Of a stretch of 64,000 nucleotides of DNA, positions 4,397 to 49,123 are shown piece by piece (position 1 is the first letter of the stretch; each line of letters begins with the position of its first letter). The position numbers and the translations under genes were made by a program. Below the pieces are notes generated by a model. That model was not told where the DNA came from. It ran no database searches and saw only the letters and a list, made by a program, of their open reading frames with translations. The DNA lies in IMG/VR virus record IMGVR_UViG_3300035670_000025; one strand, 5' to 3'. The stretch comes from a virus.

Positions 4397-4702
4397 ATGT
4401 TAACATTTAGTCAATTCTTATCTGAAGCAAAAATAGATAAAAGCAAAATGGCATGTAATAAACCAAGAGCACAAGCAGTCGGTGATTCTCAAACTGGTAA
4501 GTCTCATGTGGTAAAAGCATGTTCTGGTGGTAAAGAAAAGATTATTCGTTTTGGACAACGAGGAGTGAAAGGTTCTCCTAAGAAAAAAGGAGAATCAGAA
4601 GCATATGCGAATAGAAGAAAGAGATTCAAAGCAAGACATGCCAAAAATATAGCAAAAGGTAAAATGTCTGCTGCCTATTGGGCAAATAAGGTTAAATGGT
4701 AA
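4397..4702 (+). CDS. basic putative internal head protein with capsid-targeting-like N-terminus
   Basis: MLTFSQFLSE N-terminus; IRFG...RRKRFKARH...SAAYWA. Confidence 0.65.
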   Translation: MLTFSQFLSEAKIDKSKMACNKPRAQAVGDSQTGKSHVVKACSGGKEKIIRFGQRGVKGSPKKKGESEAYANRRKRFKARHAKNIAKGKMSAAYWANKVKW

Positions 4703-5208
4703 TGCTAACATTCAAACAATTCTTTAATATAAATGAAGAATATTTGACAGAATTAAAAAGACCAAAAAGATTTTTTCATATAGGCCCTGATGATTTACAA
4801 CCTGGAGAGGATTTGAAATCACTTTCATCTCTTGTTGGACATGAAGAAGCAAAAAAAATATTTAAGAAAAAATGGGGAGACACTTTTTCAAATGATGAAG
4901 ACTTAAACAAAGCTGCGGATGAACAAACAAAACATGTTCATATAAGTGATCATTGGGATGATACTGATCCAACAAATGAAAAAAGTGGTTCTTGGAAAAT
5001 TAGTTCTGCAAATAAGAAAGCTGGTATACAAAAAAAATTAGCATTATATAGAATTATTCCTGGTAGAAATATGCCAAATCCTATTGAAAAAGGCGGTAAC
5101 TACGGTGGTTATAAAGTAAAAGACAAAATACCAGCAAGATACATTCGTGACAAATGGGATCACAAAAATAAAAAATGGATTCCATTCAATAGACAATATT
5201 CTGAATAA
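4702..5208 (+). CDS. putative internal head protein, ADP-ribosyltransferase (Arr-like) fold
   Basis: MLTFKQFFNINEE N-terminus; FFHIGPDDLQPGEDL / KHVHIS / LYRIIP resemble Arr strands. Confidence 0.45.
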   Translation: MLTFKQFFNINEEYLTELKRPKRFFHIGPDDLQPGEDLKSLSSLVGHEEAKKIFKKKWGDTFSNDEDLNKAADEQTKHVHISDHWDDTDPTNEKSGSWKISSANKKAGIQKKLALYRIIPGRNMPNPIEKGGNYGGYKVKDKIPARYIRDKWDHKNKKWIPFNRQYSE

Positions 5209-5235
5209 CAAACATTTTTACAGGGCAACCAATTT

Positions 5236-5784
5236 ATGCTAACATTCAAACAATTCCTTGCTGAAATGCAAGCAAGCAACGATAATCCAGAAGACATACA
5301 CATCAAAAAAGCACATAATGATTCTATTCATGCTTATCTGAATCCAAAAACCTCAGCAAGTGAAAAAAAATTTCATCTAACAAAGATTAATGCTCTAAGA
5401 CATAATCTTGGGCATACACCATTGAATAATAAAATGTCTGCGCAAGAAATAAGAGGTTCGTTGCTAGAATCAAAATCATTGAGAGCAATGATAGCAGCAA
5501 CAATGCTTGCCGCATCTCCAGCACAAGCAGGTGGAATGGCACATGAATTGCCAGTTTATTCTCATGGAGAGATTAATAAACCAAACTTAAATCCAGAGTT
5601 GATTGCTAAATCAAAAGCAGCATTGGAAAAAGCACAAGATGAATACGACGAATCTATGCCAGGGGAACATCTCTCCAATGCTATTGATTCTCACAACAAT
5701 GGTGATATTAATGCGGCATTTGAACATCTTAAACAACATAATAAAAAGATGATAAATACTAAACAATCATCACCTATGTCATAA
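5236..5784 (+). CDS. putative internal head protein
   Basis: MLTFKQFLAE N-terminus; internal LLE site. Confidence 0.6.
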   Translation: MLTFKQFLAEMQASNDNPEDIHIKKAHNDSIHAYLNPKTSASEKKFHLTKINALRHNLGHTPLNNKMSAQEIRGSLLESKSLRAMIAATMLAASPAQAGGMAHELPVYSHGEINKPNLNPELIAKSKAALEKAQDEYDESMPGEHLSNAIDSHNNGDINAAFEHLKQHNKKMINTKQSSPMS

Positions 5785-5795
5785 GGTATTAGAAT

Positions 5796-6542: not shown

Positions 6543-6550
6543 ACCCAAAC

Positions 6551-6585: not shown

Positions 6586-6593
6586 AATTATTA

Positions 6594-7235
6594 ATGAAAC
6601 CTTATACATATTATCTATATCATCACCCCACCGGACTAAAATATTATGGAGTAAGATATGCTAAGAATTGTGACCCTAAAGATTTATGGGATAAATATTT
6701 CACTTCTTGTAAAAAAGTAAAAGAGTTAATTAATGAATATGGCATAAATTCATTTGAAGTTGAAATTAGAAAAATTTTTGAAAACAAAATTGATGCTATA
6801 AACTGGGAAAATAAAGTGTTGAGAAGATTGAAAGTAAAAAGGAAAAAAGAATGGATAAACATAAGTGAAGGAAAAATGCCTTTTGATAATATCACTTATG
6901 GAATGCTCGGCAAACATCACTCCGAAGATAGTAAGAAAAAAATAGCATTAGCACAACTTGGTTCTAAAAACCATATGTTTAACAAAACACACTCCGCAGA
7001 AGCAAGAAAAAAAATAAGTGAAGGAAATAAAGGGAAAAAACATTCTGAAGAAACAAAAACTACAATAAGTAAAAAAATGAAAGGCAGAGATGTCGGGTTT
7101 GGCAAAGGACACAAACATACTCCAGAAACAATAGAAAAAATAAAAATGGCAAGAGCAAAACAAATATTTTCCGAAGAACACAAGAAAAAAATGTCAGAAT
7201 CTGCCAAAAATAGAAAAAAGAGTACGAGGTATTAA
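6594..7235 (+). CDS. GIY-YIG (Seg-like) homing endonuclease with NUMOD3 repeats
   Basis: YTYYL..TGLKYYGVR..YFTS; repeated HSEExKKKIS motifs; inserted between gp14 and gp15. Confidence 0.85.
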   Translation: MKPYTYYLYHHPTGLKYYGVRYAKNCDPKDLWDKYFTSCKKVKELINEYGINSFEVEIRKIFENKIDAINWENKVLRRLKVKRKKEWINISEGKMPFDNITYGMLGKHHSEDSKKKIALAQLGSKNHMFNKTHSAEARKKISEGNKGKKHSEETKTTISKKMKGRDVGFGKGHKHTPETIEKIKMARAKQIFSEEHKKKMSESAKNRKKSTRY

Positions 7236-7237
7236 TA

Positions 7238-8086: not shown

Positions 8087-8459
8087 TGATACTATTGCCA
8101 CTGCATTAGATTTAACTCCTTTAGAACCAACAAGAAAAGATTTGGTTGCAGTTAAAACTAATAGTGATTATGAAACGGCAAAAGGGAATATGCACAATGT
8201 TATTGATGTTGGGACAAGAGCAATGTCTGATTTAGCAGACATGGCACAGCAATCTCAAGACCCAAGAGTGTACAGAGTTTTGACAGAATTAATTTCTGCA
8301 ATGACCACTGCAAATAAAGAACTTATGGAAATCAAATCCAAAGAAGTTGATATTAGACACAAAGAAGAAAAGGCAAACGATTCACCAAAAACTGTTAATC
8401 AAAATTTATTTGTTGGATCAACTGCTGATTTATTAACATTATTACAAAAGAAAGAATAA
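8079..8459 (+). CDS. gp16: terminase small subunit gp16
   Basis: DYETAKGN..PRVYRV..NQNLFVGSTADL; position. Confidence 0.9.
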   Translation: MSDDTIATALDLTPLEPTRKDLVAVKTNSDYETAKGNMHNVIDVGTRAMSDLADMAQQSQDPRVYRVLTELISAMTTANKELMEIKSKEVDIRHKEEKANDSPKTVNQNLFVGSTADLLTLLQKKE

Positions 8460-9091
8460 TGAAAACTTTTAAACAATTTCTTAAAGAAGACTCGGGGTAT
8501 CTACCCCCAACATCTATGCAACCTCCTGCAATAGTAACTCCAAGACGTGGAATTGATCATATTGGTAATTTGATTAAAAAATATGTTGCGCCACCAAAAG
8601 ATGAAATAGGAGATTTAATTAGAAGACTAGACAATCCTATAGATCATAAAAAAGAATCAGAAGATTTTATTGAAAGAACTTTCAAGTTGGAAGGGGGATT
8701 ATCAAAAGATAAATCTGATCCTGGAGGAACAACAAAGTTTGGAGTGAGTGAAAAAGGAACAGGACTTTCAAAAAATGAAATAAAAAATCTCTCACACGAA
8801 AAAGCAGGAGAAATATATAAAACACAATATTATAATGAAATGATAAAACATCCAAAATATCATACACTGAGCAAACCATCAAGAGCAATTGTATTGGATG
8901 CATCTGTACATCATGGTCCAAGATTTGCAAAAAAATTAATTGATACCGTAGGAGATAATCCACACGAACTTTTAAACGCAAGACAAAAGGATTATAATAG
9001 ATTAACCGCAAACCCAAAATATGAAAAATATCGTGAAGGGTGGAAAGCAAGATTAAATAAAATAAAAGATGAGTTTGGATTACATAATTAA
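8459..9091 (+). CDS. glycoside hydrolase family 108 lysozyme with capsid-targeting-like N-terminus
   Basis: EGG...DPGGTTKFGV, YKTQYY, LDASVHHGP, GWKARL; N-terminus MKTFKQFLKE. Confidence 0.8.
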   Translation: MKTFKQFLKEDSGYLPPTSMQPPAIVTPRRGIDHIGNLIKKYVAPPKDEIGDLIRRLDNPIDHKKESEDFIERTFKLEGGLSKDKSDPGGTTKFGVSEKGTGLSKNEIKNLSHEKAGEIYKTQYYNEMIKHPKYHTLSKPSRAIVLDASVHHGPRFAKKLIDTVGDNPHELLNARQKDYNRLTANPKYEKYREGWKARLNKIKDEFGLHN

Positions 9092-15615: not shown

Positions 15616-15930
15616 ATGGCTGATAAAGAAGATATTATCACACAAACATTAGACAAAGATGTGGTTGGTATGCAAACCACATTTGCAGAATTAATGCTTG
15701 ATAAGATTCGTGATGCTGTTGCTGAAAGAAAAGCACAAGTAGCACAAGAATTTATGGGAGTCAATTCAGATGATGAAGAATCTGAAGATGACGACACAGA
15801 AGAAGAAACAGAAGATTACGAAGAAAGTGAAGAAGAAGAATTTGAGGATGATGATCTTGAAGTAGGAGATGAACTAGATTTCGATTTTGAAGAAGAAGAC
15901 TTAGAAGGAGATTCAGATGAAAACGCTTAA
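15616..15930 (+). CDS. acidic prohead core protein (gp67-like)
   Basis: Directly after portal; very acidic C-terminus. Confidence 0.6.
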   Translation: MADKEDIITQTLDKDVVGMQTTFAELMLDKIRDAVAERKAQVAQEFMGVNSDDEESEDDDTEEETEDYEESEEEEFEDDDLEVGDELDFDFEEEDLEGDSDENA

Positions 15931-16792
15931 AGAAATTCTTCAATTAGAGGTTTATGAACCTAAATCTCCTGATGAAAAGAGATTCAAGGACAAGCATGTT
16001 GTTGTTAAGCATAAAGATGCAAATGGCAACGATGATAATTTATTCAATGCAAAGAATATTAAGACTGTAAATCGTACACCTGAGCATGGATATAATCCTG
16101 GTGAAGATGAAAAGGTTTATGAAGAAACCATTGAAGAAAAATCTAAAATAGAACATCCTTTATTCACTGCTGCTAGAAATCGCACAGTTGCTTTGAATCA
16201 AAAAGAAAAGAAAAAAAATAAAACCCCCAAGAATGAAGAATTTGAAGAATTGGAATATTTTGAAACATTAGATGAAAGAGTAACCCGAAAACTTTCACCA
16301 AAAGAACAAAGTAAGATTGCCAAGGTTATGCGGGAGTTTTCTGCTGGAGAACTTAAAGATAGTCACGGCAAACAGGTAACAGATAAAAAGCAAGCATTAG
16401 CAATTGCTTACAGTCAGATGAATGAATCTTCAGACGAACAATCTTTAATAGCAATAAAAAAAGCATATAAAGATACTTTCAACAAAAGAAGCCCAGGCAT
16501 TGTTGCAAAAAGAAACGAATTGAAAGCAGCAGCAAAAGAAGCAACATCTCCTCCATCAACTACAAAAAGAATGTCAAAAATTCTAAAAGGTATTGATGTA
16601 AATAGAATTAGAGCACCAGAATATCCTAAAGAAATGCTAGGTCCAGCAGACGCAGGACCAGATGAAAGATATGGATCAGGTCCAATGGACCCCACACGGG
16701 CATTAGCAAAAGTTCCTGGTAAAGGGGTTGTAGTTGGAACTTTAGATCCAAATTACAAAAAACCATCAAAATCTACAAAAAGCAAGAAGTAA
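15917..16792 (+). CDS. putative prohead core/internal protein (gp68 position)
   Basis: MKTLKEILQLE N-terminus; several I/L-x-E sites; lies between gp20 and gp21. Confidence 0.55.
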   Translation: MKTLKEILQLEVYEPKSPDEKRFKDKHVVVKHKDANGNDDNLFNAKNIKTVNRTPEHGYNPGEDEKVYEETIEEKSKIEHPLFTAARNRTVALNQKEKKKNKTPKNEEFEELEYFETLDERVTRKLSPKEQSKIAKVMREFSAGELKDSHGKQVTDKKQALAIAYSQMNESSDEQSLIAIKKAYKDTFNKRSPGIVAKRNELKAAAKEATSPPSTTKRMSKILKGIDVNRIRAPEYPKEMLGPADAGPDERYGSGPMDPTRALAKVPGKGVVVGTLDPNYKKPSKSTKSKK

Positions 16793-16795: not shown

Positions 16796-17167
16796 ATGAG
16801 TTATTCAATTGTACATAATAGACAAAATTTATCAGTAACAATTCATGCTACCGGCAATAGTACAATAACTATTGCTGGTAATAGTTCTACTTCAAATGTT
16901 GCCACATCAAACGAAATATTAACAGGTGCTGTTATTAAACAAGTTTGGTGGGGATCTCAACCAAATGAAGGTGCTTGTTGGATTGTGAAAAGAGGATCAA
17001 ATACTGTTGGAGTTTATGATTCTACAGGATGGGCAGATTATGCTGGAAACGGTAAAGCATTACTAAAAGATCAAAGTGCAACTCTTGTCCTTGAACTTAT
17101 AGGTACTTCAAACGGTTATATTATGATTGATCTACAAAAGATCGGCAATTTTATTAGCACATATTAA
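16796..17167 (+). CDS. hypothetical protein, likely virion-associated
   Basis: Head gene cluster; beta-rich, N/S/T-rich sequence. Confidence 0.55.
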   Translation: MSYSIVHNRQNLSVTIHATGNSTITIAGNSSTSNVATSNEILTGAVIKQVWWGSQPNEGACWIVKRGSNTVGVYDSTGWADYAGNGKALLKDQSATLVLELIGTSNGYIMIDLQKIGNFISTY

Positions 17168-17176: not shown

Positions 17177-17824
17177 ATGAAACTTATTTTAGAACAAGCA
17201 GATGAAGTATCGTTCATCACAGAAGCATCAGAAAATGGAAAGAAAAATCTTTTCATTGAAGGTTGTTACATGGTCTATGGAAAAGGTAACAAGAACGGAA
17301 GAGTTTATTCTGAAGGAGTGATGAGAAACGAAGTCAATCGTTATCTAAAAGAAGTAGTTTCAGAAAAACGTGCTTATGGTGAATTAAATCATCCATCAGG
17401 ACCACAAATCAATCTTGATAGAGTATCACACCTCATTGAAAATCTTGAAGTTAGATCAAATGGTGTTGTTTGGGGTAGAGCAAAAGTTCTTGATACTCCT
17501 ATGGGAAATATTGCCAGAGGATTGATTGAAGGTGGAGCAAATCTTGGTGTTTCTTCACGTGGACTAGGTTCATTGAAGGCAGGACAAAATGGATTGATGG
17601 AAGTACAAGACGATTTTCGTATTGTAACAGCAGCAGATATTGTTGCAGATCCATCAGCACCAGGAGCATTTGTTCAAGGAATCATGGAGAATGTAGAATA
17701 TTTCTACAATGAACAAACTGGTGAATTTGTAGAAAAGATTAAAGAAAGTGTTAAGAAAATGTCATCAAGACAACTTGAAGAACAGAAAGTAAAGTTGTTT
17801 GAGCAATTCCTAAAATCACTTTAA
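17177..17824 (+). CDS. gp21: prohead protease gp21
   Basis: NKNGRVY, GELNHP, GVSSRGLGS, DIVADPSAPGA. Confidence 0.97.
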   Translation: MKLILEQADEVSFITEASENGKKNLFIEGCYMVYGKGNKNGRVYSEGVMRNEVNRYLKEVVSEKRAYGELNHPSGPQINLDRVSHLIENLEVRSNGVVWGRAKVLDTPMGNIARGLIEGGANLGVSSRGLGSLKAGQNGLMEVQDDFRIVTAADIVADPSAPGAFVQGIMENVEYFYNEQTGEFVEKIKESVKKMSSRQLEEQKVKLFEQFLKSL

Positions 17825-17862: not shown

Positions 17863-19089
17863 ATGCCAACAACAACTATGAAAGATCGTTTGGGGAAAGA
17901 ATTTCGGGTTACTCCAGGACCATTAGGAATAACTGTTCATGCAGATCATATGAAAGATGGCCCAAAACTGATACCCAAAAAGCATCCATCCCATGATGAA
18001 TTGTTAAAAAAAATTAATGATGGGAGTGCCAAAACTGATGATGTTAAAGGTGCTTTAGTTAGAGTTGAACAAAAAGTAAATGAATCTTACCACAATAAGA
18101 AGAAAGGCAAAAATATGAAGAAGAAACCAGAAGTAATGGAGGAAGCCATGGAAGGTGACAATACTTCTGCTGCTTCTTCTATCGAAGCAAAACCATCAGA
18201 TGCCTCAAAATCAGGCATGATGGCACAAGCAATGACATCAATGGCAGCAATGGATAAGTCACAACTAGAACAAGTCCTTGCTATGATGACTTCTAAACAA
18301 TTTGCTTCCACAATTCCAGATGATGCTGCTGCCAAGAATGCCGCATCAATTGCTATGAAAGGTGCTGTTAAGGAAGATGTTGCAGAACTATTTTCCGGTG
18401 AAGAACTTTCAGAAGAATTCAAAGAAAAGACAGCAGTTCTTTTTGAAGCAGCAGTAAATGCAAAAGTTATCGCAGAAGTTGCTCGTATTGAAGAAGAATA
18501 CGAAGCAAAACTTACTGAAGAAGTAGAACAAGTTACAGAAACACTTACTGAGCAAATTGATTATTATATGTCATATGTTGCTCAAAATTGGGTAGAAGAA
18601 AATAAAGTTGCAATTGATACATCATTGCGCAACGAACTAGCAGAAGATTTCATTATGGGTCTCCGTAATCTATTCGCAGAACATTATGTTCAATTCCCAG
18701 AAGAACAAGTTGATGCAGTTGAAGCACTTGCAGAAAAAGTTGAAGAACTAGAAGCAAGACTTAACGAACAACTTGAAAAGAATATTGAGCTTAATGCAAT
18801 CGTTGAAGAACGTAACAAAGAAAAGGTTTTTGCCGAAGTCTCTGAAGGACTTGCTCTTACACAAGTAGACAAGTTTAAGACTTTGACAGAAGGAGTTGAG
18901 TTTGAAAATAATCCAGACAACTACAAGAAGAAACTTGAAATTGTCAAGGAAAAGTATTTTGGCATTAAGACAGCACCTTCAACTTTAAATGAAGAAGTTG
19001 AAGAAGTTACACAATCTCAAGAAGTAAAATATCTTGAACCACAAATTGCTAATTATGCCAAAGCAATTTCAAGAACTATCAAAAAGTAA
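17863..19089 (+). CDS. gp22: prohead scaffold/core protein gp22 with N-terminal extension
   Basis: LSEEFKEKTAVLFEAAV, YVAQNWVEEN, LFAEHY; coiled coil before gp23. Confidence 0.92.
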   Translation: MPTTTMKDRLGKEFRVTPGPLGITVHADHMKDGPKLIPKKHPSHDELLKKINDGSAKTDDVKGALVRVEQKVNESYHNKKKGKNMKKKPEVMEEAMEGDNTSAASSIEAKPSDASKSGMMAQAMTSMAAMDKSQLEQVLAMMTSKQFASTIPDDAAAKNAASIAMKGAVKEDVAELFSGEELSEEFKEKTAVLFEAAVNAKVIAEVARIEEEYEAKLTEEVEQVTETLTEQIDYYMSYVAQNWVEENKVAIDTSLRNELAEDFIMGLRNLFAEHYVQFPEEQVDAVEALAEKVEELEARLNEQLEKNIELNAIVEERNKEKVFAEVSEGLALTQVDKFKTLTEGVEFENNPDNYKKKLEIVKEKYFGIKTAPSTLNEEVEEVTQSQEVKYLEPQIANYAKAISRTIKK

Positions 19090-19142: not shown

Positions 19143-20492
19143 ATGTTAACAGAACAACTTAATAACAAGTGGAAGCCAATTCTAGAGCATGAAGACCTTA
19201 ACCCAATTAAGGACATTCATCGCCGTAATACAACTGCCGTTCTTCTTGAAAATACAGAAAAGGCACTTCGTGAAGGTTCTGCTTATTCAAGCCAGTTCCT
19301 TGTTGAAAATCCAATTCCAGCAAACGCAATGAGAGCATCTAGCTCTACAGCATCTGATGGTGCAATCGACACTTTCGATCCTGTTCTTATTTCTCTCGTT
19401 CGTCGTGCAATGCCAAATCTTATTGCTTATGATATCTGCGGCGTTCAGCCAATGACAGGTCCAACAGGACTTATCTTCGCAATGCGTGCAAGATATGCTA
19501 ACCAAACACACACAGAAACATTCTACAACGAAGTCAATACTGCATTCTCTTCAGTTGTTTCTGGTGCAAACACACTTGGTCAAAAGCATGTTGGTACTCT
19601 TCCAGGCAACACAACTGTAACAGCAAACCTTGCTGAAGAAGGAATCTATAACTTCGGTTCAGCAATGTCAACTGCACAAGCAGAAGCACTTGGTACAACT
19701 GACAATACTGCATTTGCTCAAATGGCATTCAGCATTGAAAAGGTTGCCGTTACTGCAAAGTCACGTGCTCTCAAAGCAGAATACACAATGGAACTTGCAC
19801 AAGATCTTAAGGCAATTCACGGTCTTGATGCAGAAACAGAACTATCAAACATTCTTTCTGCTGAAATTCTTGCAGAAATCAATCGTGAAGTAGTTCGTAC
19901 AATCCTTGTTACTGCAACTAAGGGTGCTACAGAAGGTACAACAACTTCTGGTATCTTTGATCTTGATACAGACTCAAACGGTCGTTGGTCAGTTGAAAAG
20001 TTCAAGGGTCTTATGTTCCAAGTTGAAAGAGAAGCTAATAAGATCGCAAAAGATACCCGTAGAGGGAAGGGCAATATCGTAATCTGTTCATCAGATGTTG
20101 CTTCTGCACTTCAAATGGCAGGTATCCTTGATTATGCTCCAGCACTTAATAGCAACCAACTTAATGTTGATGATACTGGTAATACATTTGCTGGTGTTCT
20201 TAACGGTCGTATGCGTGTCTATATCGACCCATATGCAACAGGTGGAAACTATATGGTCGTAGGTTATAAGGGATCAAACGCATTTGATGCCGGTCTATTC
20301 TACTGCCCATACGTTCCTCTCCAAATGGTTCGTGCAGTTGATCAAGACTCATTCCATCCAAAGATTGGATTCAAGACTCGTTATGGAATGGTAGCAAATC
20401 CATTTGCCGAAGGTGCAACTGCTGGTGTTGGTGCACTTACTAAGGACAGCAATGTTTACTACAGAAGAGTTCTTGTTACAAACTTGATGTAA
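19143..20492 (+). CDS. gp23: major capsid protein gp23
   Basis: LVRRAMPNLIAYDICGVQPMTGPTGLIFAMR, KSRALKAEY, YCPYVPL, GFKTRYG. Confidence 0.98.
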   Translation: MLTEQLNNKWKPILEHEDLNPIKDIHRRNTTAVLLENTEKALREGSAYSSQFLVENPIPANAMRASSSTASDGAIDTFDPVLISLVRRAMPNLIAYDICGVQPMTGPTGLIFAMRARYANQTHTETFYNEVNTAFSSVVSGANTLGQKHVGTLPGNTTVTANLAEEGIYNFGSAMSTAQAEALGTTDNTAFAQMAFSIEKVAVTAKSRALKAEYTMELAQDLKAIHGLDAETELSNILSAEILAEINREVVRTILVTATKGATEGTTTSGIFDLDTDSNGRWSVEKFKGLMFQVEREANKIAKDTRRGKGNIVICSSDVASALQMAGILDYAPALNSNQLNVDDTGNTFAGVLNGRMRVYIDPYATGGNYMVVGYKGSNAFDAGLFYCPYVPLQMVRAVDQDSFHPKIGFKTRYGMVANPFAEGATAGVGALTKDSNVYYRRVLVTNLM

Positions 20493-20512: not shown

Positions 20513-20541
20513 AGAAGGGGGTTGATTCCCCCTTCTTTTTT
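20513..20541 (+). terminator. intrinsic terminator after gp23
   Basis: agaaggggg-ttgatt-cccccttct followed by a T-run. Confidence 0.85.
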
Positions 20542-20584
20542 ATCTATATTACAACAGATACCAAACCATAGAATGGAAACTATA

Positions 20585-22102
20585 ATGATTGATCTCAAAC
20601 AAATATGTGACGAAAGAATCTTTGATAAGAAATATATGATTTCTTTATCAGTAAACAAACAACTTCGTGAAACAATAATAAATTATACACAATGGATGCC
20701 GATTGATTCTCCACTAAAGATTCGTTGTTTAGCAATACATCTTGGTTATACGGAGCAAACTTTCCCTAACTGTATAGTCTGTGGGTTGCCTGTAACATAT
20801 AACAAATCATATCAAAATAAATTTAGCAATTATTGTGGTCCAGATTGTAGTAGATCTCATAGACACAGATTGAATCAAGATACTTATCAAAAACTAAATG
20901 ATAAAGATTGGTTATATTATCAAAGAATTGATTTGAAAAAGTCTTATGAAGAAATCGCAGAATTGATTAACTGTTCTATTAATCCAATAAAAAAAGCATG
21001 TATTCAACATAACATACCTATGGTTCAACACAATTGTTCTCAACCCCTTATATTGTTGAAACTACAAGATAAACAATGGTTGTTTGATTTACATTGTAAT
21101 CAAAGAAAGAAGGTTGAAGAAATAGCAGAAATGGTTGGTAGTTCTAAAGCAACAGTAAGTAGGTGGTTGAACTATCACGAAATTGAGACCAATCAACCAA
21201 ACAGTTATCCAAGAAAATTTAATAAAATATCTGGACAACATCAGCAAGTTATTGATTATGTTTGTTCTATTATTGGACAAGACCAAGTTTTAATCAACGA
21301 CAGAACATTATTGAATGGCAAGGAAGTAGATTTATATATTCCATCTAAAAAACTTGCGATTGAATATAATGGAGTGTTTTATCACGCATTTAGACCAGAA
21401 CACTCCAACCCTGCATTAAGAAAAGACAGAAAGTATCATATATCAAAAACACTTGAGTGCGAGAAAGTAGGTGTTAGGTTGATTCATATCTTTAGTGATG
21501 ATTGGATCTATAAACAAGATATATGGAAGTCTATTCTGGTAAATCTTTTGGAACAACCATACCAAAGATTGTATGCGAGGAAATTGACAATAAGAATACC
21601 ATCACAAACAGACAAAAAACAGTTTTTAAATAAAAATCATTTGCAAGGTGATGATAAATCAAGCATTTGGTTTGCCTTATATGACGATGATAAAATCATA
21701 AGCATTATGACTTTTTGTAAATCCAGGTATAACAAAAACTATCCGTGGGAACTGTCAAGATATTGTGTTGGTCAAGGAATTTCTTGTGTAGGAGGATTTT
21801 CTAAACTACTAAAGAATTTTCAAAAACAATATCAAGGAGATATTATATCCTATGCTGATTATTCAAGGTCACAAGGAAATGTATATTTGAAAAATGGGTT
21901 TGTATTAATTAAACGCAATCCACCATCATATGCTTATGTTGATTTATCAAAAAACGAAAAAAGAATGCATAGGTCAAATTATACAAAGAAAAAATTAAAT
22001 ATATGTAATGATATTACAGAGAAACAATATATGGAAGACAACGGATACAAAAGAATATATGATTGTGGAACATTGGTATTTGTAAAAAAGTCAATTTTAT
22101 AA
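20585..22102 (+). CDS. Hef-like homing endonuclease (Zn/HTH N-terminus, Vsr-like nuclease)
   Basis: CxxC..YCGPDC; EVDLYIPSKKLAIEYNGVFYH; WELSRYC..ISYAD..YLKNGF..IYDCG. The listed TTG start lies in the terminator, so ATG 20573 or 20585 is more likely. Confidence 0.75.
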   Translation: MIDLKQICDERIFDKKYMISLSVNKQLRETIINYTQWMPIDSPLKIRCLAIHLGYTEQTFPNCIVCGLPVTYNKSYQNKFSNYCGPDCSRSHRHRLNQDTYQKLNDKDWLYYQRIDLKKSYEEIAELINCSINPIKKACIQHNIPMVQHNCSQPLILLKLQDKQWLFDLHCNQRKKVEEIAEMVGSSKATVSRWLNYHEIETNQPNSYPRKFNKISGQHQQVIDYVCSIIGQDQVLINDRTLLNGKEVDLYIPSKKLAIEYNGVFYHAFRPEHSNPALRKDRKYHISKTLECEKVGVRLIHIFSDDWIYKQDIWKSILVNLLEQPYQRLYARKLTIRIPSQTDKKQFLNKNHLQGDDKSSIWFALYDDDKIISIMTFCKSRYNKNYPWELSRYCVGQGISCVGGFSKLLKNFQKQYQGDIISYADYSRSQGNVYLKNGFVLIKRNPPSYAYVDLSKNEKRMHRSNYTKKKLNICNDITEKQYMEDNGYKRIYDCGTLVFVKKSIL

Positions 22103-22202: not shown

Positions 22203-22490
22203 ATGGCATATCTATATGTAATCGGTGGAACAGAAAAACCATATAAAATTGGAATAACAAATAATCCTGCAAGAAGATTGAAAAATCTTCAAACAGGACA
22301 TCCAAAAAAACTTAAATTGCATCACATTGAATTGATTTCTGATGATCAAGTTAGATTACTTGAACAAACTATTCACAATACGATTAAACACAGAAAAACA
22401 CATGGGGAATGGTTTGATATTGATTTAGAACAAGCAATATCAGAAGTAAAACACGCAAGAATTAGGTATCTTAAAGATGAAGAAGTTTAA
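22203..22490 (+). CDS. GIY-YIG nuclease (T5orf172/Mug113-like)
   Basis: YLYVIG..YKIGITNNPARRLKNLQTG..E..IH..GEWF. Confidence 0.85.
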   Translation: MAYLYVIGGTEKPYKIGITNNPARRLKNLQTGHPKKLKLHHIELISDDQVRLLEQTIHNTIKHRKTHGEWFDIDLEQAISEVKHARIRYLKDEEV

Positions 22491-22821
22491 ACAATATATC
22501 ACAGAAGAAAATCACATAACAATATATCGTGGAGAATCTGTACACAATCGTAAAGGTGGACCACTAAAAGGAAAATTTTATTCTGTAGATAAAGAGTTTG
22601 CTAGACAATTTACACAATCAGGACAAGAAAAAGAAGTATTGACAAAACAAATACCAACAAATCGTGTAAAAGATATGAGTCACATTTATGCAGGAGATGA
22701 TATAGAACCACATCTGAATCAAGCAAAAAGTGAAGGATTTGCCGCAGTAAGATTTAATGAAGGTGGAAATGAACCACATTCAATTTATGTATTCGATCAC
22801 AAAGCATTAAGGAGAATTTAA
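22477..22821 (+). CDS. putative internal head protein, ADP-ribosyltransferase-like
   Basis: MKKFKQYITE N-terminus; IYRG, FYS..KEFARQF, GFAAV..IYVFD. Confidence 0.5.
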   Translation: MKKFKQYITEENHITIYRGESVHNRKGGPLKGKFYSVDKEFARQFTQSGQEKEVLTKQIPTNRVKDMSHIYAGDDIEPHLNQAKSEGFAAVRFNEGGNEPHSIYVFDHKALRRI

Positions 22822-23353: not shown

Positions 23354-23812
23354 ATGTATACATTTAAACAGTTTATCACTGAAAATTATAAAGGACAGCA
23401 TGAAGCGCCAGATAAGGAAACTGGAGCACCCTTACATGATGTTACTTCTAATGGAATTTATCCAAAAGATGTTTATTCACATAAAGGATTTGAATATTAT
23501 GGAAATCAAGGAAATGATTATGATCAATCTAATTTTAATAAAATACAAAGGATGAAAGATAAACCAGACGAAAAAATTTATATATTTAGAGCAGTTCCGT
23601 TATCTGTTCGTAAAGAAGCAATGAAAAAAGAAATACCAATAAGACATATGATTAGACCAGGAGATTGGGTAACAACATCAAAAGAATATGCACACGAGCA
23701 TGGTAGAAATCATTTAAATGGCGAATATCATGTTGCCGCAATGAGAGTACCAGCAAAACATATATTCACTGATGGCAATTCTCATTTAGAATGGGGGTAT
23801 GATCCAAAATAA
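23354..23812 (+). CDS. putative internal head protein, ADP-ribosyltransferase-like
   Basis: MYTFKQFITE N-terminus; IYIFRAVP, PGDWVTTSKEYA, LEWGY (R-S/T-E pattern). Confidence 0.5.
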   Translation: MYTFKQFITENYKGQHEAPDKETGAPLHDVTSNGIYPKDVYSHKGFEYYGNQGNDYDQSNFNKIQRMKDKPDEKIYIFRAVPLSVRKEAMKKEIPIRHMIRPGDWVTTSKEYAHEHGRNHLNGEYHVAAMRVPAKHIFTDGNSHLEWGYDPK

Positions 23813-28224: not shown

Positions 28225-28253
28225 GTTAAAATTATTATGTGGAGGATGTGACC

Positions 28254-29960
28254 ATTCTTATATTTTCTAAAATCCGATGGCAAAATTTTCTGTCTACGGG
28301 AAACATGTTTACGGAAATCCAACTTAATTCTCATAATAATACTTTAATTTGTGGGGTCAATGGTTCTGGAAAAAGTACTTTGATTGATGCGATAACATTT
28401 GTTCTTTTTGGAAAATCGTTTCGTAATATAAACAAACCACAATTAATCAACAGTACAAATTCTAAAAATATGTTGGTAGAAATAGAATTTTCTATCAATG
28501 GAAACAAATACATAGTTCGTCGTGGAATGAAACCAAATATATTTGAAATCTATCAAAACGGAACTTTGATAAATCAATCAGCAGACAGTAAAGATTATCA
28601 ATCAATTTTAGAAAAAACAATTCTTAAAATGAATTATAAATCATTTTGTCAGGTTGTTGTTCTTGGTTCTGCAAACTTTACTCCGTTTATGCTATTACCA
28701 GCAGCACAAAGAAGAGCATTTGTTGAAGATTTGTTGGATATACAAATATTCACAACCATGAATGCTTTGCTTAAAGATAAAACAGCAGAAAACAAGTTTG
28801 AGATCACAGATTGTGATACCAAAATCAAGATTGCAGAAAATACTTTAGAAGTGAATAAAAAGCATAGAGAACGTGCTTCTCGTGATATCATGGAATTAAT
28901 TTCTCAAAAAGAAACATTGATTAAAGAAACTCAATTAGAATTAGATACTCACAATTCTGAGTTCTCTTCCTTGGAAATTAAAAGCAATCAATTACAGTCA
29001 AAAATAAGCAAGAACAGGCAGAAAAATAAGAATGCACTGGATAAGGCATACAATATGAGAACTGCCCTAGAATCTAAATTAAAGGGCAATGAGAAGGGTA
29101 TTGCATTCTATCAGGGAAATGATTCTTGTCCCACCTGTGAACAACATATTACTTCTGATTTTAAAGATAAGAAATTGCTTGATATTTCTACAAAGAAAGA
29201 AGAAAACGAATCTATTCTCAAAGAATTATCAGAAAAGATTTCAAAACTGGAAAAGAATCAAGAGCAAATTATTTCATGGGCAGATGAATTACAACAACTA
29301 AACAAAGAACTTATTGAACTTTCTTCTAAAATTAATTTCTGCATGAAAGTAATTTCTTCATATGAGAAAGATATCAAAGATTTGAACAATAATTCGTTGG
29401 TCGAAATTGATGATACAGAAACTATTAATAAATTGAATTATTTGAAAAAAACAAAAGAACATCTTTTTGCTCAAAGAGAACTATATAATGTTGGTCTCGT
29501 TTTGTTGAAAGATGGTGGAATTAAGGCAAAAATTATCAAACAATATATTCCAGTTATCAATCAGATGATTAACAAGTATTTGGACGATATGGAATTTTTC
29601 TGTCAATTTACTATTGATGAAACCTTTGAAGAAAAGATAAAGTCCAGATATAGGGATGCTTTTACCTTTGAATCTTTTTCTGAAGGAGAAAAAATGAGAT
29701 TGAATCTTGCTATTCTTTTTACATGGAGAGAATTGGCAAGAATGAGAAATTCAGCAGCAACGAATCTTCTAATACTTGATGAAATCATGGATTCTTCTTT
29801 AGATTCATCTGGTACTGAAGAATTCATTAAAATTGTTCAATCGTTAACAAAACGAAATAATGTATTTGTTATTAGTCATAAGACGGATCAAATACAAGAA
29901 CGATTTGAAAATATTATTAGATTTGAAAAGAAAAAGAACTTTTCAAAGATTGTAGAATAG
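28254..29960 (+). CDS. gp46: recombination ATPase gp46 (Rad50/SbcC-like); likely ATT start
   Basis: NFLSTGN, GVNGSGKST, CPTC hook, FSEGEK, LILDE; GGAGG 8 nt before ATT 28254. Confidence 0.95.
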   Translation: MLIFSKIRWQNFLSTGNMFTEIQLNSHNNTLICGVNGSGKSTLIDAITFVLFGKSFRNINKPQLINSTNSKNMLVEIEFSINGNKYIVRRGMKPNIFEIYQNGTLINQSADSKDYQSILEKTILKMNYKSFCQVVVLGSANFTPFMLLPAAQRRAFVEDLLDIQIFTTMNALLKDKTAENKFEITDCDTKIKIAENTLEVNKKHRERASRDIMELISQKETLIKETQLELDTHNSEFSSLEIKSNQLQSKISKNRQKNKNALDKAYNMRTALESKLKGNEKGIAFYQGNDSCPTCEQHITSDFKDKKLLDISTKKEENESILKELSEKISKLEKNQEQIISWADELQQLNKELIELSSKINFCMKVISSYEKDIKDLNNNSLVEIDDTETINKLNYLKKTKEHLFAQRELYNVGLVLLKDGGIKAKIIKQYIPVINQMINKYLDDMEFFCQFTIDETFEEKIKSRYRDAFTFESFSEGEKMRLNLAILFTWRELARMRNSAATNLLILDEIMDSSLDSSGTEEFIKIVQSLTKRNNVFVISHKTDQIQERFENIIRFEKKKNFSKIVE

Positions 29961-40565: not shown

Positions 40566-41507
40566 ATGAAATCTTTTAAAGAGTTTAGAGAACAATATCA
40601 AAATCTTCCTCTACTTACAGAGGAAGAGTTTCAAATCTTTCTTCAAATTTTACAAGAATCAGAAAATCCTGAAGATTATTATGAACAAACAAAAAAACAA
40701 ATGGGTCCAAAGATGGGTCCATTATTGGGTAAAGGTTCTTCAAGAGCAGCACATGCTGGAGTAACTATTCCAATTAAATTGAGACAATATAGTAAGGATG
40801 GTGGTTCATATACTGTGGTGGACCATCATGTTCCTGTTGTTTATAAGTTTGCTATAAAACATTATAGCAGTTATGATTCTGTGCGTGAACCACATCAAAA
40901 AATGTTGGGTCAATTGCAAAATTTGAATGAAGTACATCCTGTTTTTGATCCTCTGAGAACATATCACAAACATGAAGATGGTACATATTCTGCAAATCCA
41001 CATGGTATTATACCAACGGTATTTCATGCACATCCAGAAGGATTATATTTAATATCAGAAAGAATTCGTCCTATTAAAACAGCAGATTTCCATAAGATTC
41101 ATGGAATACATATGGATGATATGGGAGATTATTTAAATGCTTTGCGTAATCATGCGATAAGGGGTCTTGGCAGTACAACTACTGGTATGGATATACAACA
41201 ACACCAAGAATATGGTAAACATAATATAACAGAAGATCATCCATTGGTAAAATCATGGAGGTCCGCTGTAACAGAAGCAGGACTTCATGGTGGAGACTTC
41301 AACGAAGATAATACTGGGATGAGCATAAATCATCCACACGGAGAAAGAGTATTGATGGCAGATTCTGGATTTCTTACACCACCTGGGCATGTAGAAGGAT
41401 TACATAATACTGTTAAAGAATATGCTAAACGTAGTGATAAAAAATATCAAGCTGATCGTAAAAAAATAAGAATGGGGATTCCATTAACTAATTATTCGAG
41501 AGAGTAA
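40566..41507 (+). CDS. protein kinase-like fold protein with capsid-targeting-like N-terminus
   Basis: LGKGSSR (Gly loop), VYKFA, QNLNE, GDFNEDN (catalytic loop), ADSGF (DFG-like); N-terminus MKSFKEF. Confidence 0.6.
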   Translation: MKSFKEFREQYQNLPLLTEEEFQIFLQILQESENPEDYYEQTKKQMGPKMGPLLGKGSSRAAHAGVTIPIKLRQYSKDGGSYTVVDHHVPVVYKFAIKHYSSYDSVREPHQKMLGQLQNLNEVHPVFDPLRTYHKHEDGTYSANPHGIIPTVFHAHPEGLYLISERIRPIKTADFHKIHGIHMDDMGDYLNALRNHAIRGLGSTTTGMDIQQHQEYGKHNITEDHPLVKSWRSAVTEAGLHGGDFNEDNTGMSINHPHGERVLMADSGFLTPPGHVEGLHNTVKEYAKRSDKKYQADRKKIRMGIPLTNYSRE

Positions 41508-44159: not shown

Positions 44160-44167
44160 CACAATTC

Positions 44168-46133: not shown

Positions 46134-46167
46134 ATGCTATGATCCTTCATCAACAAGGAGATTGACC

Positions 46168-46260: not shown

Positions 46261-46303
46261 ATTTACTAAATAATAAAACAGAAATTGCACAAAGGAAAAT
46301 TTT

Positions 46304-46852
46304 ATGACAATTCAAACCCCCCCACCAAGAAAAATGCCACAGATGGCAAGATCAGGCAAAAATAAGTATGGGAATCCAAAACCAAAAATACAATGCCAAA
46401 AATGTAAAGAATATTTGCGTGAAAATAAATTTTCTTTAATAGACAAAACAGACAGCAAAAAAGGTCGGAGGTCAAATTGCAAATCTTGTTCTGCAAAAAA
46501 AGCAAAAATAGAACGAGATAGAAGAAAAAACGATTGGAAATATAAACCGACCTTATCTATGCTGAATAACTCAAAGCAAAGAGCAAAAAATAGTAATTTG
46601 GAACATACTTTAGTTATTGAAGATATAGTTATACCGGATTATTGTCCGGTGTTCGGCATTAAGTTAGAAACAGGAAATAGAAAAAATCATATAAACGCAC
46701 CCAGTATTGATAGAATTGACAACACTAAAGGTTATATTAAAGACAATATTTTAATTATGTCAGTAAAAGCAAATATATTAAAAAAAGATGCAACGTTAGA
46801 TGAATTGATTATGCTTGGAAAATGGGCAGAAAAAATGAAAGACAAACTATGA
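46304..46852 (+). CDS. HNH-like (His-Me finger) homing endonuclease
   Basis: CxxC..CxxC; CPVFG..PSIDRIDNTKGY..DN....KAN. Confidence 0.8.
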   Translation: MTIQTPPPRKMPQMARSGKNKYGNPKPKIQCQKCKEYLRENKFSLIDKTDSKKGRRSNCKSCSAKKAKIERDRRKNDWKYKPTLSMLNNSKQRAKNSNLEHTLVIEDIVIPDYCPVFGIKLETGNRKNHINAPSIDRIDNTKGYIKDNILIMSVKANILKKDATLDELIMLGKWAEKMKDKL

Positions 46853-47385
46853 ATATTTTTTATCTATCACCAAATGCAAAACTATCAGCACAAACGTTGG
46901 TCAATAGACATGTTGTTTCTCAAACAAAAGAAACAGCACAACTATTATCTACAGCACACAGAGTATTAGATGGTAATATGGTAGTTGTTCCAAATGAAAA
47001 TGGAAGGAAAATGAAACGGTGGGTATTACGAGATGATAGAGAAACCAAGTTATATCTTGCTTCTCACACAAATCATCCAAGTGCAATTTGGTGTAGAGAA
47101 ACATCTGCTAACTATCAGTGGTTGTATTGGCATTTTGTTGGATTGTTGGATGAATATACTCACAGATATGGCAAAGTTCACAAATGTGCATCTATGAAAG
47201 ATGTATTATCGGAGTTGCCAAAGAGCATTAAGTTTGGTGGATTTAGTGAACCAACTCCTGCTATGGATGAGCAGTATATTGTGAAAGGTAACAGTTTGAA
47301 GTCGTATATGAATTATTATAAATATGGTAAAGTGCATTTGCACGCATGGACCAACAGATCACCACCGGACTGGATTAAGGAATGA
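46849..47385 (+). CDS. pyrimidine dimer DNA glycosylase/endonuclease V-like protein
   Basis: MNIFYL..RHVV..ETAQLLSTAH, HTNHPSAIW, EYTHRYGKVH, PAM, RSPPDW. Confidence 0.75.
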   Translation: MNIFYLSPNAKLSAQTLVNRHVVSQTKETAQLLSTAHRVLDGNMVVVPNENGRKMKRWVLRDDRETKLYLASHTNHPSAIWCRETSANYQWLYWHFVGLLDEYTHRYGKVHKCASMKDVLSELPKSIKFGGFSEPTPAMDEQYIVKGNSLKSYMNYYKYGKVHLHAWTNRSPPDWIKE

Positions 47386-48416
47386 TGAGATTTAAAACCT
47401 TTATAAATGAGTCTTATGGAAGATACTTTCGCAGAGAAAAAGCAAGAAAAAAAGGAAGCAGAGTAAACAAAACTGTTTCCGATTATTTTGAAATGGCCAC
47501 GGTTGTGCACACTCACAATTCATTAAGTCATCCAAATCAACATCCAGAATATTTAGATCACATTGAAGATTTAAAAACAAAATTGGACACGATCAGAGCA
47601 AACAATCCTCATTTAAAAGACAGGTTGGATTCTCAAGATTCTTTAGCAAAAAAATCTTCAAAATTATTAATAGATAAATTGTCTGAAAAAAGGTCTAAGG
47701 AAAAAGATTTTACTTTACAAGATGTATCTGAAGTAAGGCATGTAAAAAATGCTAGACATTTATTTAGTTTAATAGGAAGAACCCCTGACAGTTCTTTTAG
47801 TGCTAGAAGATATCCACACGATTTAATGTTTAAACTAAGAACCGGTTCTTTTCATGGAGCATCGTTGAAAGGATCAGAAAAAGATTTTGGAACATACAAC
47901 AATCTTGGGGCTCGCAGGCATTCATCAGAGGACACGACTGGAATAGCATCTCATGCGTATGCTGATTATAATTCTGCAAGAACCAGAGAACTTGGTTCAA
48001 ACAAGACAAAAGAAAATAAAGAAAGCAAAAGATCTTCTTATTTAGAAACAAGAAAAGGCATTGTTGATAAAATAACAAAGAATTTCAATGGTGCAAATTC
48101 AATAGATCAACAAAGAAAATATCTTCATTCTTTATTAAAACCAGAATCGGATATACCATATTATACTGTTTTGCCACATAGAAATCAAGGACAGGGTGAA
48201 GCAATTCTTCATGGCAGAGGAACAATGAGAAAAAGGATCAATTCTGCTACAAGATTGTCTGCTACCCAACATGGAAACGGAGTTATACAATATCATACGC
48301 ATCATGAAGATGGACGAAAAATACCTCTATTTTATGTAGAACACCGGTCTACAAAAGGTCCATGGGGTTCATTACAATTTAATGTAAAACTGGGACAATT
48401 TAAGAAAGAAGAATAA
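47385..48416 (+). CDS. putative PD-(D/E)xK-like nuclease with capsid-targeting-like N-terminus
   Basis: MRFKTFINE; FE...PHDLM...GASLK. Confidence 0.45.
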   Translation: MRFKTFINESYGRYFRREKARKKGSRVNKTVSDYFEMATVVHTHNSLSHPNQHPEYLDHIEDLKTKLDTIRANNPHLKDRLDSQDSLAKKSSKLLIDKLSEKRSKEKDFTLQDVSEVRHVKNARHLFSLIGRTPDSSFSARRYPHDLMFKLRTGSFHGASLKGSEKDFGTYNNLGARRHSSEDTTGIASHAYADYNSARTRELGSNKTKENKESKRSSYLETRKGIVDKITKNFNGANSIDQQRKYLHSLLKPESDIPYYTVLPHRNQGQGEAILHGRGTMRKRINSATRLSATQHGNGVIQYHTHHEDGRKIPLFYVEHRSTKGPWGSLQFNVKLGQFKKEE

Positions 48417-49123
48417 TGTTACCATTTAAATCATTCATTCAATTAGACGAACAACTACTAAAATCCATAATGAAAAAACTGTATGGAGGAAAAAAATTTG
48501 TAAGTTGGTTTGATCTGGACGACACACTGGTCAAACATGACCCAGAAAAAGGAGCAAAGGTTCATGTAAATGATGAAAAAGGAAACAGAGTGGAAACTCT
48601 ATCCACCTCTGAATTTAATACTCATGTCAAGGGAGACAATCTAAAACCAGGACATAGTTATGACTTCAAAGAATTTAAAGATCCAAAGGTGTTTGCTAAC
48701 TCTGCACACCCAATCAGAAAAATGATTAACCACGCACAAAGATTATTAGATAACGGACATCATGTTCATATCATCACCGCAAGAAGTGATTTAGAAAATC
48801 CAGAAATTCTATTGGGATCTTTGAAACAAATGGGATTGGATACTTCACATCCTAATTTCCATTTACACAGAGCAGGAAATTACGGCAAAAACCCAACACA
48901 CATTAATAAAGCAAGAATGTTGCATCGCATATTGACAGAACCAAAGTTTGGTTTATCTGGAGTTAAAAAAATCGTTGGATACGATGACCATAAAGCAAAT
49001 GTTGATGATATTCACACAACCCCCCTTGAAGAGTTGGGCGGAAAATCTCTTAGAGATCATCACACAGATAAAGAATTTGTTGGTATACACTTCACCAAAG
49101 GAAAAGTTAAGAGAGTATCATAA
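48416..49123 (+). CDS. HAD-superfamily phosphatase with capsid-targeting-like N-terminus
   Basis: MLPFKSFIQLDE; FDLDDTL, IITAR, K, YDD..N. Confidence 0.75.
   Translation: MLPFKSFIQLDEQLLKSIMKKLYGGKKFVSWFDLDDTLVKHDPEKGAKVHVNDEKGNRVETLSTSEFNTHVKGDNLKPGHSYDFKEFKDPKVFANSAHPIRKMINHAQRLLDNGHHVHIITARSDLENPEILLGSLKQMGLDTSHPNFHLHRAGNYGKNPTHINKARMLHRILTEPKFGLSGVKKIVGYDDHKANVDDIHTTPLEELGGKSLRDHHTDKEFVGIHFTKGKVKRVS

Follow-up and report, generated by a model that had tools for sequence, protein, structure and literature searches.

A tag resembling the T4 capsid targeting sequence at nine gene starts of an uncultured T4-like phage

Three internal proteins (IPs) of phage T4, namely IPI, IPII and IPIII, reportedly carry a capsid targeting sequence (CTS), as is said to have been described by Mullaney and Black in 1996. 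In phage T7 the internal core protein gp16, which has a lytic transglycosylase domain, is ejected before the DNA. The T4 IP/CTS system has been reviewed (PMC3012670, PMC9026906), and T4 Alt is a packaged and injected ADP-ribosyltransferase (ART) which is processed by gp21 (PMC5694885, PMC9026906). The ejection proteins of the giant phages phiKZ and SPN3US are made with long propeptides that are cut at x-x-E by a gp21-related protease (PMC5694885, PMC7411985). Here we describe a short N-terminal peptide (the tag) shared by nine genes in a stretch of 64,000 nucleotides (the window) of the IMG/VR virus record IMGVR_UViG_3300035670_000025. The source genome is 149,078 bp long, carries direct terminal repeats and is rated 100% complete; the GC content is about 32%, and the phage is a T4-like myovirus of a distant uncultured lineage. 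Genes are designated by the window position of their first nucleotide, and the loci used for comparison by L numbers.

The tag most closely resembles the start of the T4 IPs, since M-K-T-F-K-Q-F-L-K-E in this phage compares with M-K-T-Y-Q-E-F-I-A-E in IPII and IPIII and with M-K-T-F-K-E-F in IPI. Both systems have 10- and 19-residue forms which end in [LI]-x-E for a gp21-type protease, and in both the cargo is unrelated, hypervariable and tends to be basic. Unlike T4, which has three tags, this phage, known from its genes alone, has nine; most of its cargo is 100-340 residues long with several enzyme folds, whereas the T4 proteins are small inhibitors, and its tagged genes are scattered at late-operon junctions rather than collected in two IP loci. 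Alt offers a parallel in that an ART-fold enzyme stands behind a propeptide removed by the protease, which would match genes 22477 and 23354 as well as numerous tagged ART-like genes of relatives, provided that these are packaged. The ART domains found here are, however, minimal (104-142 residues) and show no detectable sequence relation to Alt, the nearest folds to 22477 being AcrIF11 and ParT/RES-type toxins. Storage of a cell-wall hydrolase in the head for delivery at infection, as in T7 gp16, is the likely logic of gene 8459 and of the lysozyme, glucosaminidase and DPBB cargo of relatives, but the enzyme family and the loading differ, T7 having neither a cleaved tag nor a prohead protease, and 8459 could instead, or also, be an endolysin. 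In phiKZ and SPN3US many head-internal proteins are likewise loaded via N-terminal propeptides and trimmed by a T4-type prohead protease; their propeptides are 80-130 residues long and have no common sequence, while here one tag, approximately 10 residues in length, recurs. Systems of this kind are already known from the T4 CTS. New are the distant uncultured lineage, a tag that is nearly identical over such a distance, the proportion of enzymes in the cargo and the scattering of the cassette sites.

The tag family and its likeness to the T4 sequence

A first-pass annotation of the window had listed ten N-termini with a common peptide and an identity of the first 21 nt of genes 4702 and 5236; all ten were found at their coordinates, and the identity was confirmed. 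The consensus of the tag is M-x-T-F-K-Q-F-[LI]-x-E. A loose DNA pattern (ATG-N6-TWY-N3-SAR-TWY-HTN-N3-GAR), encoding M-x-x-[FY]-x-[QE]-[FY]-[LIMF]-x-E, has five matches in the window, with 0.02 expected. Using a position-specific scoring matrix (PSSM) built from six window tags, those tags scored at least 20 and the best of 43,430 internal windows 12.8. A second PSSM was trained on the N-termini of database homologues only. With it the starts of 4397, 4702, 5236, 8459, 22477, 23354, 40566, 47385 and 48416 scored 10.8-22.8, compared with 7.6 for the next best of 1,427 starts of forward open reading frames (ORFs) beginning with ATG and 4.0 for the best of 706 reverse-strand starts; the scores of 22477, 23354 and 47385 are not independent of the training set, in which their own homologues were used. 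Nine gene starts form one tag family far above chance. The tenth proposed member, 15917, scored at background level.

No tag was found at the starts of the approximately 125 genes in the remaining 85 kb or so of the 149-kb genome, and none at internal positions. The bodies behind the tags show no detectable mutual similarity; descent of the ten genes as paralogues was rejected since the bodies are unrelated and untagged homologues exist. A signal peptide was also rejected, the tag not being hydrophobic enough. The tag DNA varies at synonymous sites (TTT/TTC, CAA/CAG, ACA/ACT/ACG, AAA/AAG) with the peptide kept, and the DNA upstream of the tags shows no conservation; selection therefore acts on the peptide.

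The terminal Glu lies at residue 10 in 4397, 5236, 8459, 22477 and 23354, at residue 12 in 4702 and 48416, at residue 9 in 47385 and at residue 19 in 40566. All nine supported propeptides end in the gp21-type cleavage motif [LI]-x-E (with variants, [LIF]-x-E), and all nine belong to the 10-19-residue propeptide class of the CTS with aromatic residues at positions 4 and 7, which 15917 does not. Tagged proteins have a higher isoelectric point (pI) than the other proteins of the phage (median 9.4 versus 6.7; Mann-Whitney p=0.005). No printed instance of the motif T-F-K-Q-F in a phage context was found in the literature searched.

Across the whole T4 genome the loose pattern identified exactly three places, ipII, ipIII and gene 61.1, and a control gave none. 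Both ipII and ipIII start with M-K-T-Y-Q-E-F-I-A-E and gene 61.1 with M-K-T-F-K-E-F-I-K-E. The ipI product, read from the record, starts with M-K-T-F-K-E-F and has I-T-E at residue 19, the IPI cut position. In length and build the leader of the 40566 family matches this IPI propeptide (M-K-[ST]-F-K-E, then L-P-[LV]-L-T-E at residues 14-19). Mutagenesis of the T4 IPIII CTS assigned residues 4 and 7 mainly to targeting and residues 8 and 10 to processing (PMC9026906, section 2.6). The conserved tag positions, F4, F/Y7, L/I8 and E10, are the same four, and therefore the tag, judged by its residues, is in effect the T4 CTS in all but name. A review has suggested the CTS as a possible evolutionary route for various proteins into the capsids of T4-like phages (PMC9026906).

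Gene 61.1 of T4 (NC_000866 19130-18966) is an unstudied ORF of 54 residues in which a stretch rich in Gly/Ser and then K-K-K-K come after the CTS. IMG/VR loci L017, L028, L042 and L079 encode small tagged proteins that are built alike, the one in L017 showing a weak 30% identity to 61.1 over 43 residues. From its start, gene 61.1 may encode a fourth CTS protein of T4.

Portability of the tag, processing proteins and insertion sites

A strict pattern, M-x-T-F-K-Q-F-[LIMF]-x-E, was scanned over IMG/VR, for which the rough chance expectation is about one in the whole collection. At least 128 strict tags were identified in at least 118 loci, nearly all at ORF starts and for the most part on T4-like contigs. 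Among the matches listed, genes in common with this phage are present in 94 of the 118 loci, and 115 tagged proteins, after removal of their first 12 residues, fell into 85 groups without BLASTP similarity to one another. The Pfam families recognized among the at least 85 cargo groups are DUF6321, DUF6267, S-AdoMet lyase, DPBB_1, Phage_lysozyme, Glucosaminidase, LysM, Zeta_toxin/AAA_33, two ART families and HEAT repeats.

Untagged relatives exist for three cargo families of the window. The 23354 family occurs in three states, with a 10-residue tag, with a longer leader ending in F-L-K-E, or starting directly at the conserved core. Near homologues of 22477 are tagged, and distant ones have a variant leader or none; homologues of 4397 in the podo- and siphoviruses SIO1, CRP-810, S-EIVl and P12053L are without tag. 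The 47385 family is the reverse case, its bodies having diverged to 26-35% identity with the tag pattern kept in nearly all members. In AlphaFold2 (AF2) models the tag is left disordered and outside the fold (residues 1-9 in 22477, 1-14 in 23354). The proposal that the tag is a portable element fused to unrelated cargo was well supported by the number of cargo groups, the untagged homologues and this position outside the folds.

Tags were also noted in cultured phages. KVP40-like Vibrio phages carry tagged homologues of 23354, and in Vibrio phage VH7D (L005, L007) tags stand on a 23354 homologue and on a protein of 215 residues which has a methyltransferase-like L-D-Y-G-A-G-K string and no Pfam match. 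Stenotrophomonas phage DLP6 (L135) has a tagged DUF6267 protein with a K-Y-D-G string, the Pfam domain of which begins right after the tag. A dense array was observed in G003, the IMG/VR contig of L035 (140 kb, 40% complete), with 12 loose-pattern tags on one strand within 22 kb (approximately 42,256-63,898). Its cargo includes many ART-like paralogues, several of them with an L-[YFW]-R-G motif, one weak ART-PolyVal match and a Zeta-toxin-type P-loop kinase; two S77 protease matches were recorded in this contig, one of them weak (23 bits, below cut-off).

Genes for a gp21-type prohead protease, a gp22-type scaffolding core protein and a major capsid protein were identified in the window (Table 1). 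The known maturation site of T4 gp23 (F-L-T-E, then A-E-I-G-G) aligns with F-L-V-E, then N-P-I-P, in this phage, and L-x-E is kept at the capsid maturation site in all relatives examined. Based on these aligned capsid sites across the clade, the φ-x-E specificity of the protease thus appears to be conserved, and the tags share that ending. An S77 protease was found in 9 of 15 long tag-bearing IMG/VR contigs, and no contig with a completeness of 66% or more lacked it; the other six are fragments with a completeness of 9-57%.

The C-terminus of the protease itself, K-L-F-E-Q-F-L-K-S-L (window positions 17780-17821), was the second best of the 43,430 internal windows on the tag PSSM. In tag-bearing relatives the protease ends in L-F-Q-E-F-L-S-N-L, L-F-N-E-F-L-S-N-L, I-F-E-A-F-M-K-N-L or V-F-T-N-F-I-S-K-L, and in T4 gp21 in Y-M-A-L-A-E-A-M-K-K-A-L. 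A tag-like protease C-terminus fits the published guess that the gp21 propeptides target the enzyme to the core like a CTS (PMC9026906).

The tagged genes lie between gp13 and gp14 (4397, 4702, 5236), between gp16 and gp17 (8459), flanking gp3 (22477, 23354), behind the polymerase gene (40566) and before a virion structural gene (47385, 48416), and several overlap the stop codon of their neighbour. Late-promoter-like TATAAATA boxes were found at 47317 (before 47385), 22098 and 22170. In relatives the gp13|gp14 junction is either closed (a gap of 3-8 bp) or holds one to five tagged genes, five being present in the closest relative, L060; gp16|gp17 is also empty or filled, L033 having a 23354 homologue there. 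Since these junctions are empty in some relatives and filled in others, they are cassette sites. The earlier claim that many of the tagged genes sit between conserved core genes agrees with the placement at gp13|gp14 and gp16|gp17 and with the insertion hot spots in relatives. Their behaviour is comparable to that of the T-even IP loci, which are described as hypervariable, with more than 30 IP variants cited, in a passage of one paper (PMC2839356).

Candidate mechanism and competing explanations

The phage has a real and portable tag family, near-identical to the T4 CTS, together with the protease, the scaffold, the capsid L-x-E site and the insertion hot spots. The shared N-terminus is, in our judgement, probably a T4-type CTS, that is, a short flexible propeptide leading to docking, gp21-type cleavage, residence in the head and ejection. 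Docking, cleavage, head residence and ejection, and the action of each cargo on the host, are what we infer from these elements. By its aromatic residues 4 and 7 the new protein would dock on the gp22-type scaffolding core while the prohead is being assembled. The [LIF]-x-E end of the tag would be the site for the gp21-type S77 prohead protease, which would cut after the Glu once the shell has closed, and the mature cargo would remain in the head with the DNA. As with the T4 IPs and Alt, the cargo would exit through the tail with the DNA and act in the new host before phage gene expression. The predicted set consists of a small basic protein, a GH108 muramidase, two ART-fold proteins, a kinase-like and a HAD-like protein and three unknowns. 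The tagged genes stand at late structural operon junctions and are often translationally coupled, and their products are therefore expected to be made during prohead assembly. The T4-type reading had already been offered in the first-pass annotation, and its core withstood all the computational tests that could be applied; cross-detection of the T4 IPs, the S77 protease, the gp22-type scaffold and the capsid L-x-E site speak for it, while its tenth tag (15917), its third ART and its nuclease did not hold.

Several points weigh against this mechanism. The phage is an uncultured IMG/VR record known only as sequence, and ejection and an anti-defence role are drawn wholly by analogy from T4. The loose pattern was not found in phiM12, Melnitz, Mosig or S-SSM7, four cultured relatives that share the protease family; the head type therefore does not depend on the tag, and use of the tag by all phages of this head type was rejected. 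In KVP40-like phages the tagged 23354 homologue lies among replication genes, not late genes. The supposed tag of 15917 reaches a PSSM score of only 3.0-3.3, which is background. The product of 8459 is the only GH108 protein and the only recognisable muramidase in the genome, in which no PF00959 was found, and it might simply be the endolysin.

A first alternative, which we regard as unlikely, is that the tag does load these proteins but that their role lies within the particle, where they would be accessories of the core or scaffold, neutralisers of DNA charge or head-maturation factors, the enzyme folds being incidental or inactive. The marked basicity of the tagged proteins recalls proteins that condense DNA, the basic products of 4397 and 15917 are small or of low complexity, and the portal-protease interval, the home of core proteins gp67 and gp68 in T4, holds tagged genes in relatives. 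Essential assembly factors are, however, a poor fit to a cargo that is hypervariable between close relatives and to junctions that are often empty. Furthermore, the substrates of GH108, lysozyme, SAM (S-adenosylmethionine) lyase, ART and kinase enzymes lie in the host cell and not in the head, and the T4 proteins with this tag are ejected (PMC3012670, PMC9391042).

More improbable still is a shared start that acts as an address, or as a regulatory label, for a different destination, such as the membrane, a host chaperone or protease, or another phage structure, the likeness to the T4 CTS then being the convergence of a generic amphipathic start. The four cultured relatives which have the protease family and lack the tag would suit this explanation, as would the absence of structure from the tag in the AF2 models. 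Against it, the pattern detects in T4 only IP genes and 61.1, the conserved positions are the four from T4 mutagenesis, the tag always ends in the L-x-E motif of the protease as does the capsid protein cut site, and it co-occurs with the S77 protease; its hydrophobicity is also too low for a signal peptide.

Selection at the nucleic-acid level, with the start serving as a translation-initiation enhancer or as microhomology for cassette recombination and the peptide functionless, is hardly credible. In its favour are the 21-nt identity between the starts of 4702 and 5236, the exchange of cassettes at fixed junctions in relatives and a passage on T-even IP loci which links conserved flanking elements to shuffling (PMC2839356, citing Repoila 1994). 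Against it, synonymous sites vary freely while the peptide is kept, the upstream DNA is unconserved, and the 47385 family keeps the peptide pattern at its low body identity by means of residues that differ but belong to the same class. Recombination at the tag may well contribute to its spread without replacing the function of the peptide.

If the tag works as a CTS as it does in T4, the packaged proteins of uncultured T4-type phages could be listed from sequence alone, giving nine proteins from this phage and at least 85 unrelated cargo groups from IMG/VR. Were this true, the list would hold candidates for pre-made and immediately acting host-takeover or counter-defence factors, among them SAM lyases and also ARTs which resemble an enzymatic anti-CRISPR. 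That a nearly identical tag is found in T4 and in a lineage with a capsid protein less than 50% identical suggests strong conservation of the docking site on the scaffolding core, and the tools by which foreign proteins are loaded with the T4 CTS might therefore work in other phages. A broader proposal is advanced tentatively, and we hold it to be possible rather than probable. It takes the CTS as an address readable from sequence across a very large clade of uncultured T4-type phages. This address would mark out an 'injectome' of ready-made enzymes that is shuffled horizontally (ARTs, both AcrIF11-like and others, SAM lyases, hydrolases of the cell wall, kinases, and repair enzymes of the ligase or phosphatase type) and that would strike host defences before transcription of any phage gene; fixed late-operon junctions would be the cassette sites, and the tag-like C-terminal helix of the protease would dock at the same core site.

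Cargo of the tagged genes and surrounding genes

Table 1. Tagged genes, the doubtful tag and associated head and endonuclease genes in the window
Feature	Coordinates	Strand	Remarks
Tagged gene 1, 10-residue tag ending F-L-S-E	4397..4702	+	between gp13 and gp14; PSSM 22.1
Tagged gene 2, 12-residue tag variant (…F-F-N-I-N-E)	4702..5208	+	156-residue body; PSSM 16.4
Tagged gene 3, canonical 10-residue tag	5236..5784	+	172-residue body with hydrophobic stretch; last before gp14; PSSM 22.8
Three homing-endonuclease-type genes in structural module	6594-7235, 20522-22102, 22203-22490		adjoining tagged genes
Tagged GH108 N-acetylmuramidase (predicted): tag, ~60-residue linker, catalytic domain	8459..9091	+	PSSM 22.8
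Doubtful tag M-K-T-L-K-E-I-L-Q-L-E, 291-residue basic low-complexity protein	15917..16792	+	between gp67-like core gene and protease
gp21-type prohead protease (Peptidase_S77), presumed tag reader/cutter	17177..17824	+	Pfam PF03420 2.5e-32; PHROG head maturation protease
gp22-type scaffolding core protein, presumed docking partner	17863..19089	+	Pfam T4_CASP PF25623 9.5e-65; PHROG scaffolding protein
Major capsid protein (Gp23 family)	19143..20492	+	Pfam PF07068 1.8e-151
Tagged minimal ADP-ribosyltransferase-fold protein (predicted), 104 residues after tag	22477..22821	+	AF2 pLDDT 85
Tagged ART-fold-like protein, 142 residues after tag, family phrog_2579	23354..23812	+	AF2 pLDDT 88
19-residue IPI-type leader (M-K-S-F-K-E-F … L-L-T-E), 294-residue body	40566..41507	+	just after DNA polymerase gene; PSSM 12.8
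Tagged 343-residue basic protein, 9-residue tag ending I-N-E	47385..48416	+	PSSM 13.4
12-residue variant tag ending L-D-E, weakly HAD-phosphatase-like body	48416..49123	+	PSSM 10.8

The first-pass annotation had assigned a GH108, a HAD, a kinase-like, a nuclease-like and three ART-like domains to the cargo. The GH108 assignment was confirmed. Gene 8459 is wedged between the genes for the small (gp16) and large (gp17) terminase subunits, with stop/start overlaps at both ends, and its product matched Pfam PF05838 at 5.8e-14 (52.8 bits, cut-off 21.2). The GH108 motif E-G-G…D-x-x-D-x-G-G-x-T is intact and was read at residues 78-92. The protein also matched a PHROG endolysin, an NCBIfam muramidase and GH108-type chains in the PDB (down to 2.5e-6). 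Based on the above-cut-off match and the motif, its prediction as a GH108 muramidase is solid.

Two of the three ART-like cargoes were retained, 22477 by its fold and, less clearly, 23354. Comparison of the 22477 model with the PDB using VIA-align gave 26 rows with a Z score of 5 or more, nearly all of the ART fold. The top match was 6kyf (AcrIF11, identity according to the literature), with Z 7.4, a root-mean-square deviation (rmsd) of 3.6 and 94 residues aligned, followed by the ART-fold proteins NatT, ParT and MbcT (ParT-, NatT- and RES-type toxins) at Z 6.3-6.6. The model thereby gives good support for a split beta-sheet ART fold, at the level of the fold since Z is below 8. In the family alignment R18 and S48 are invariant and E95 is nearly so. 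The 22477 model also aligned with part of chain B of PDB 9k3a, the pre-ejectosome of cyanophage A4 (Z 5.7, rmsd 4.3, 98 aligned), which is, at the level of the model, another ART-like module in a phage ejection protein.

For 23354, approximately 40 of 50 VIA-align rows were of the ART fold, the best with Z 5.2 (rmsd 3.0, 76 aligned). Foldseek gave no significant match (E at least 0.13), the family profile had no match against PDB sequences, and hhalign of the 23354 family against the 22477 family was not significant. An ART fold for the 23354 model is weakly but consistently indicated. The third proposed ART, 4702, was dropped after hhalign against the 22477 family aligned the tag only. Gene 4702 starts within the stop of the previous gene (TAATG), its product matched no family model, and the sole homologue found for its product (L099, 37% identity) bears a canonical tag.

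The body of 4397 comprises 91 residues, is very basic (pI approximately 10.7) and belongs to family phrog_7595. For 5236 no match was found in Pfam, PHROG or NCBIfam, and none in cultured phages by tblastn. The 19-residue leader of 40566 is kept in 11 homologues. The proposed kinase likeness of this protein is weak; a motif-like glycine loop and A-x-K, D-x4-N and D-x-G strings can be read, and its structural neighbours in the Atlas include Pkinase clusters, but at a TM of only 0.40-0.46, and neither Pfam nor NCBIfam gave a match. Most of the 20 homologues of 47385 (26-35% identity) start with M-x-x-F-x-x-[FY]-[LIF]-x-E. A nuclease had been suggested for this gene and was not sustained, a single weak Atlas row being all that pointed to it.

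Gene 48416 lies directly upstream of the virion structural gene 49123-50424. All its matches to HAD models were below cut-off (Pfam HAD IIIB, E=0.005, 16.7 versus 27 bits; NCBIfam HAD-IIIC, 0.006, 17.4 versus 35.75), as was a PHROG polynucleotide kinase match at 2.6e-6, and no match was found among PDB sequences or, by tblastn, in cultured phages. A D-x-D-x-T string is present near residue 33. The HAD claim survives in these sub-threshold matches and the string, with no family model above its cut-off; the protein is weakly HAD-like, a lead only. Single-protein searches for related loci with 8459, 47385 and 40566 returned no relatives; one of these searches gave 226 pattern matches, probably to the tag peptide.

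The case for 15917 as a tagged gene is positional only. Canonical tagged genes are present in the portal-protease interval of L082 and L075, and none in L118 and L094. In cultured phages tblastn with 15917 gave a short internal match only. A conserved ORF of 123 residues (16796-17167) without a family match lies directly upstream of the protease, with positional counterparts of 88 residues in L118 and L094.

The late module was delineated by PHROG and Pfam scans, which identified gp13, gp14, gp15, gp16, gp17, gp18, gp19 and gp20, a gp67-like core protein, the gp21 protease, the gp22 scaffold, gp23 and gp3, followed by UvsY, UvsW and DNA polymerase. The capsid protein is 71% identical to that of Stenotrophomonas phage DLP6, approximately 65% identical to its counterparts in Sinorhizobium phage phiM12, Melnitz, Pelagibacter phage Mosig and cyanomyoviruses, and 44-48% identical to T4 gp23 over aligned stretches. 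Among the homing-endonuclease-type genes are one HNH of 526 residues and one short GIY-YIG-like ORF.

An ORF of 73 residues at 28003-28224 begins with M-L-T-F yet is no tag. Its F-E-K-I-R-W-Q string echoes F-S-K-I-R-W-Q near the start of the next gene, which is gp46-like (28239-29960), and this repeat suggests a duplicated or displaced 5' end.

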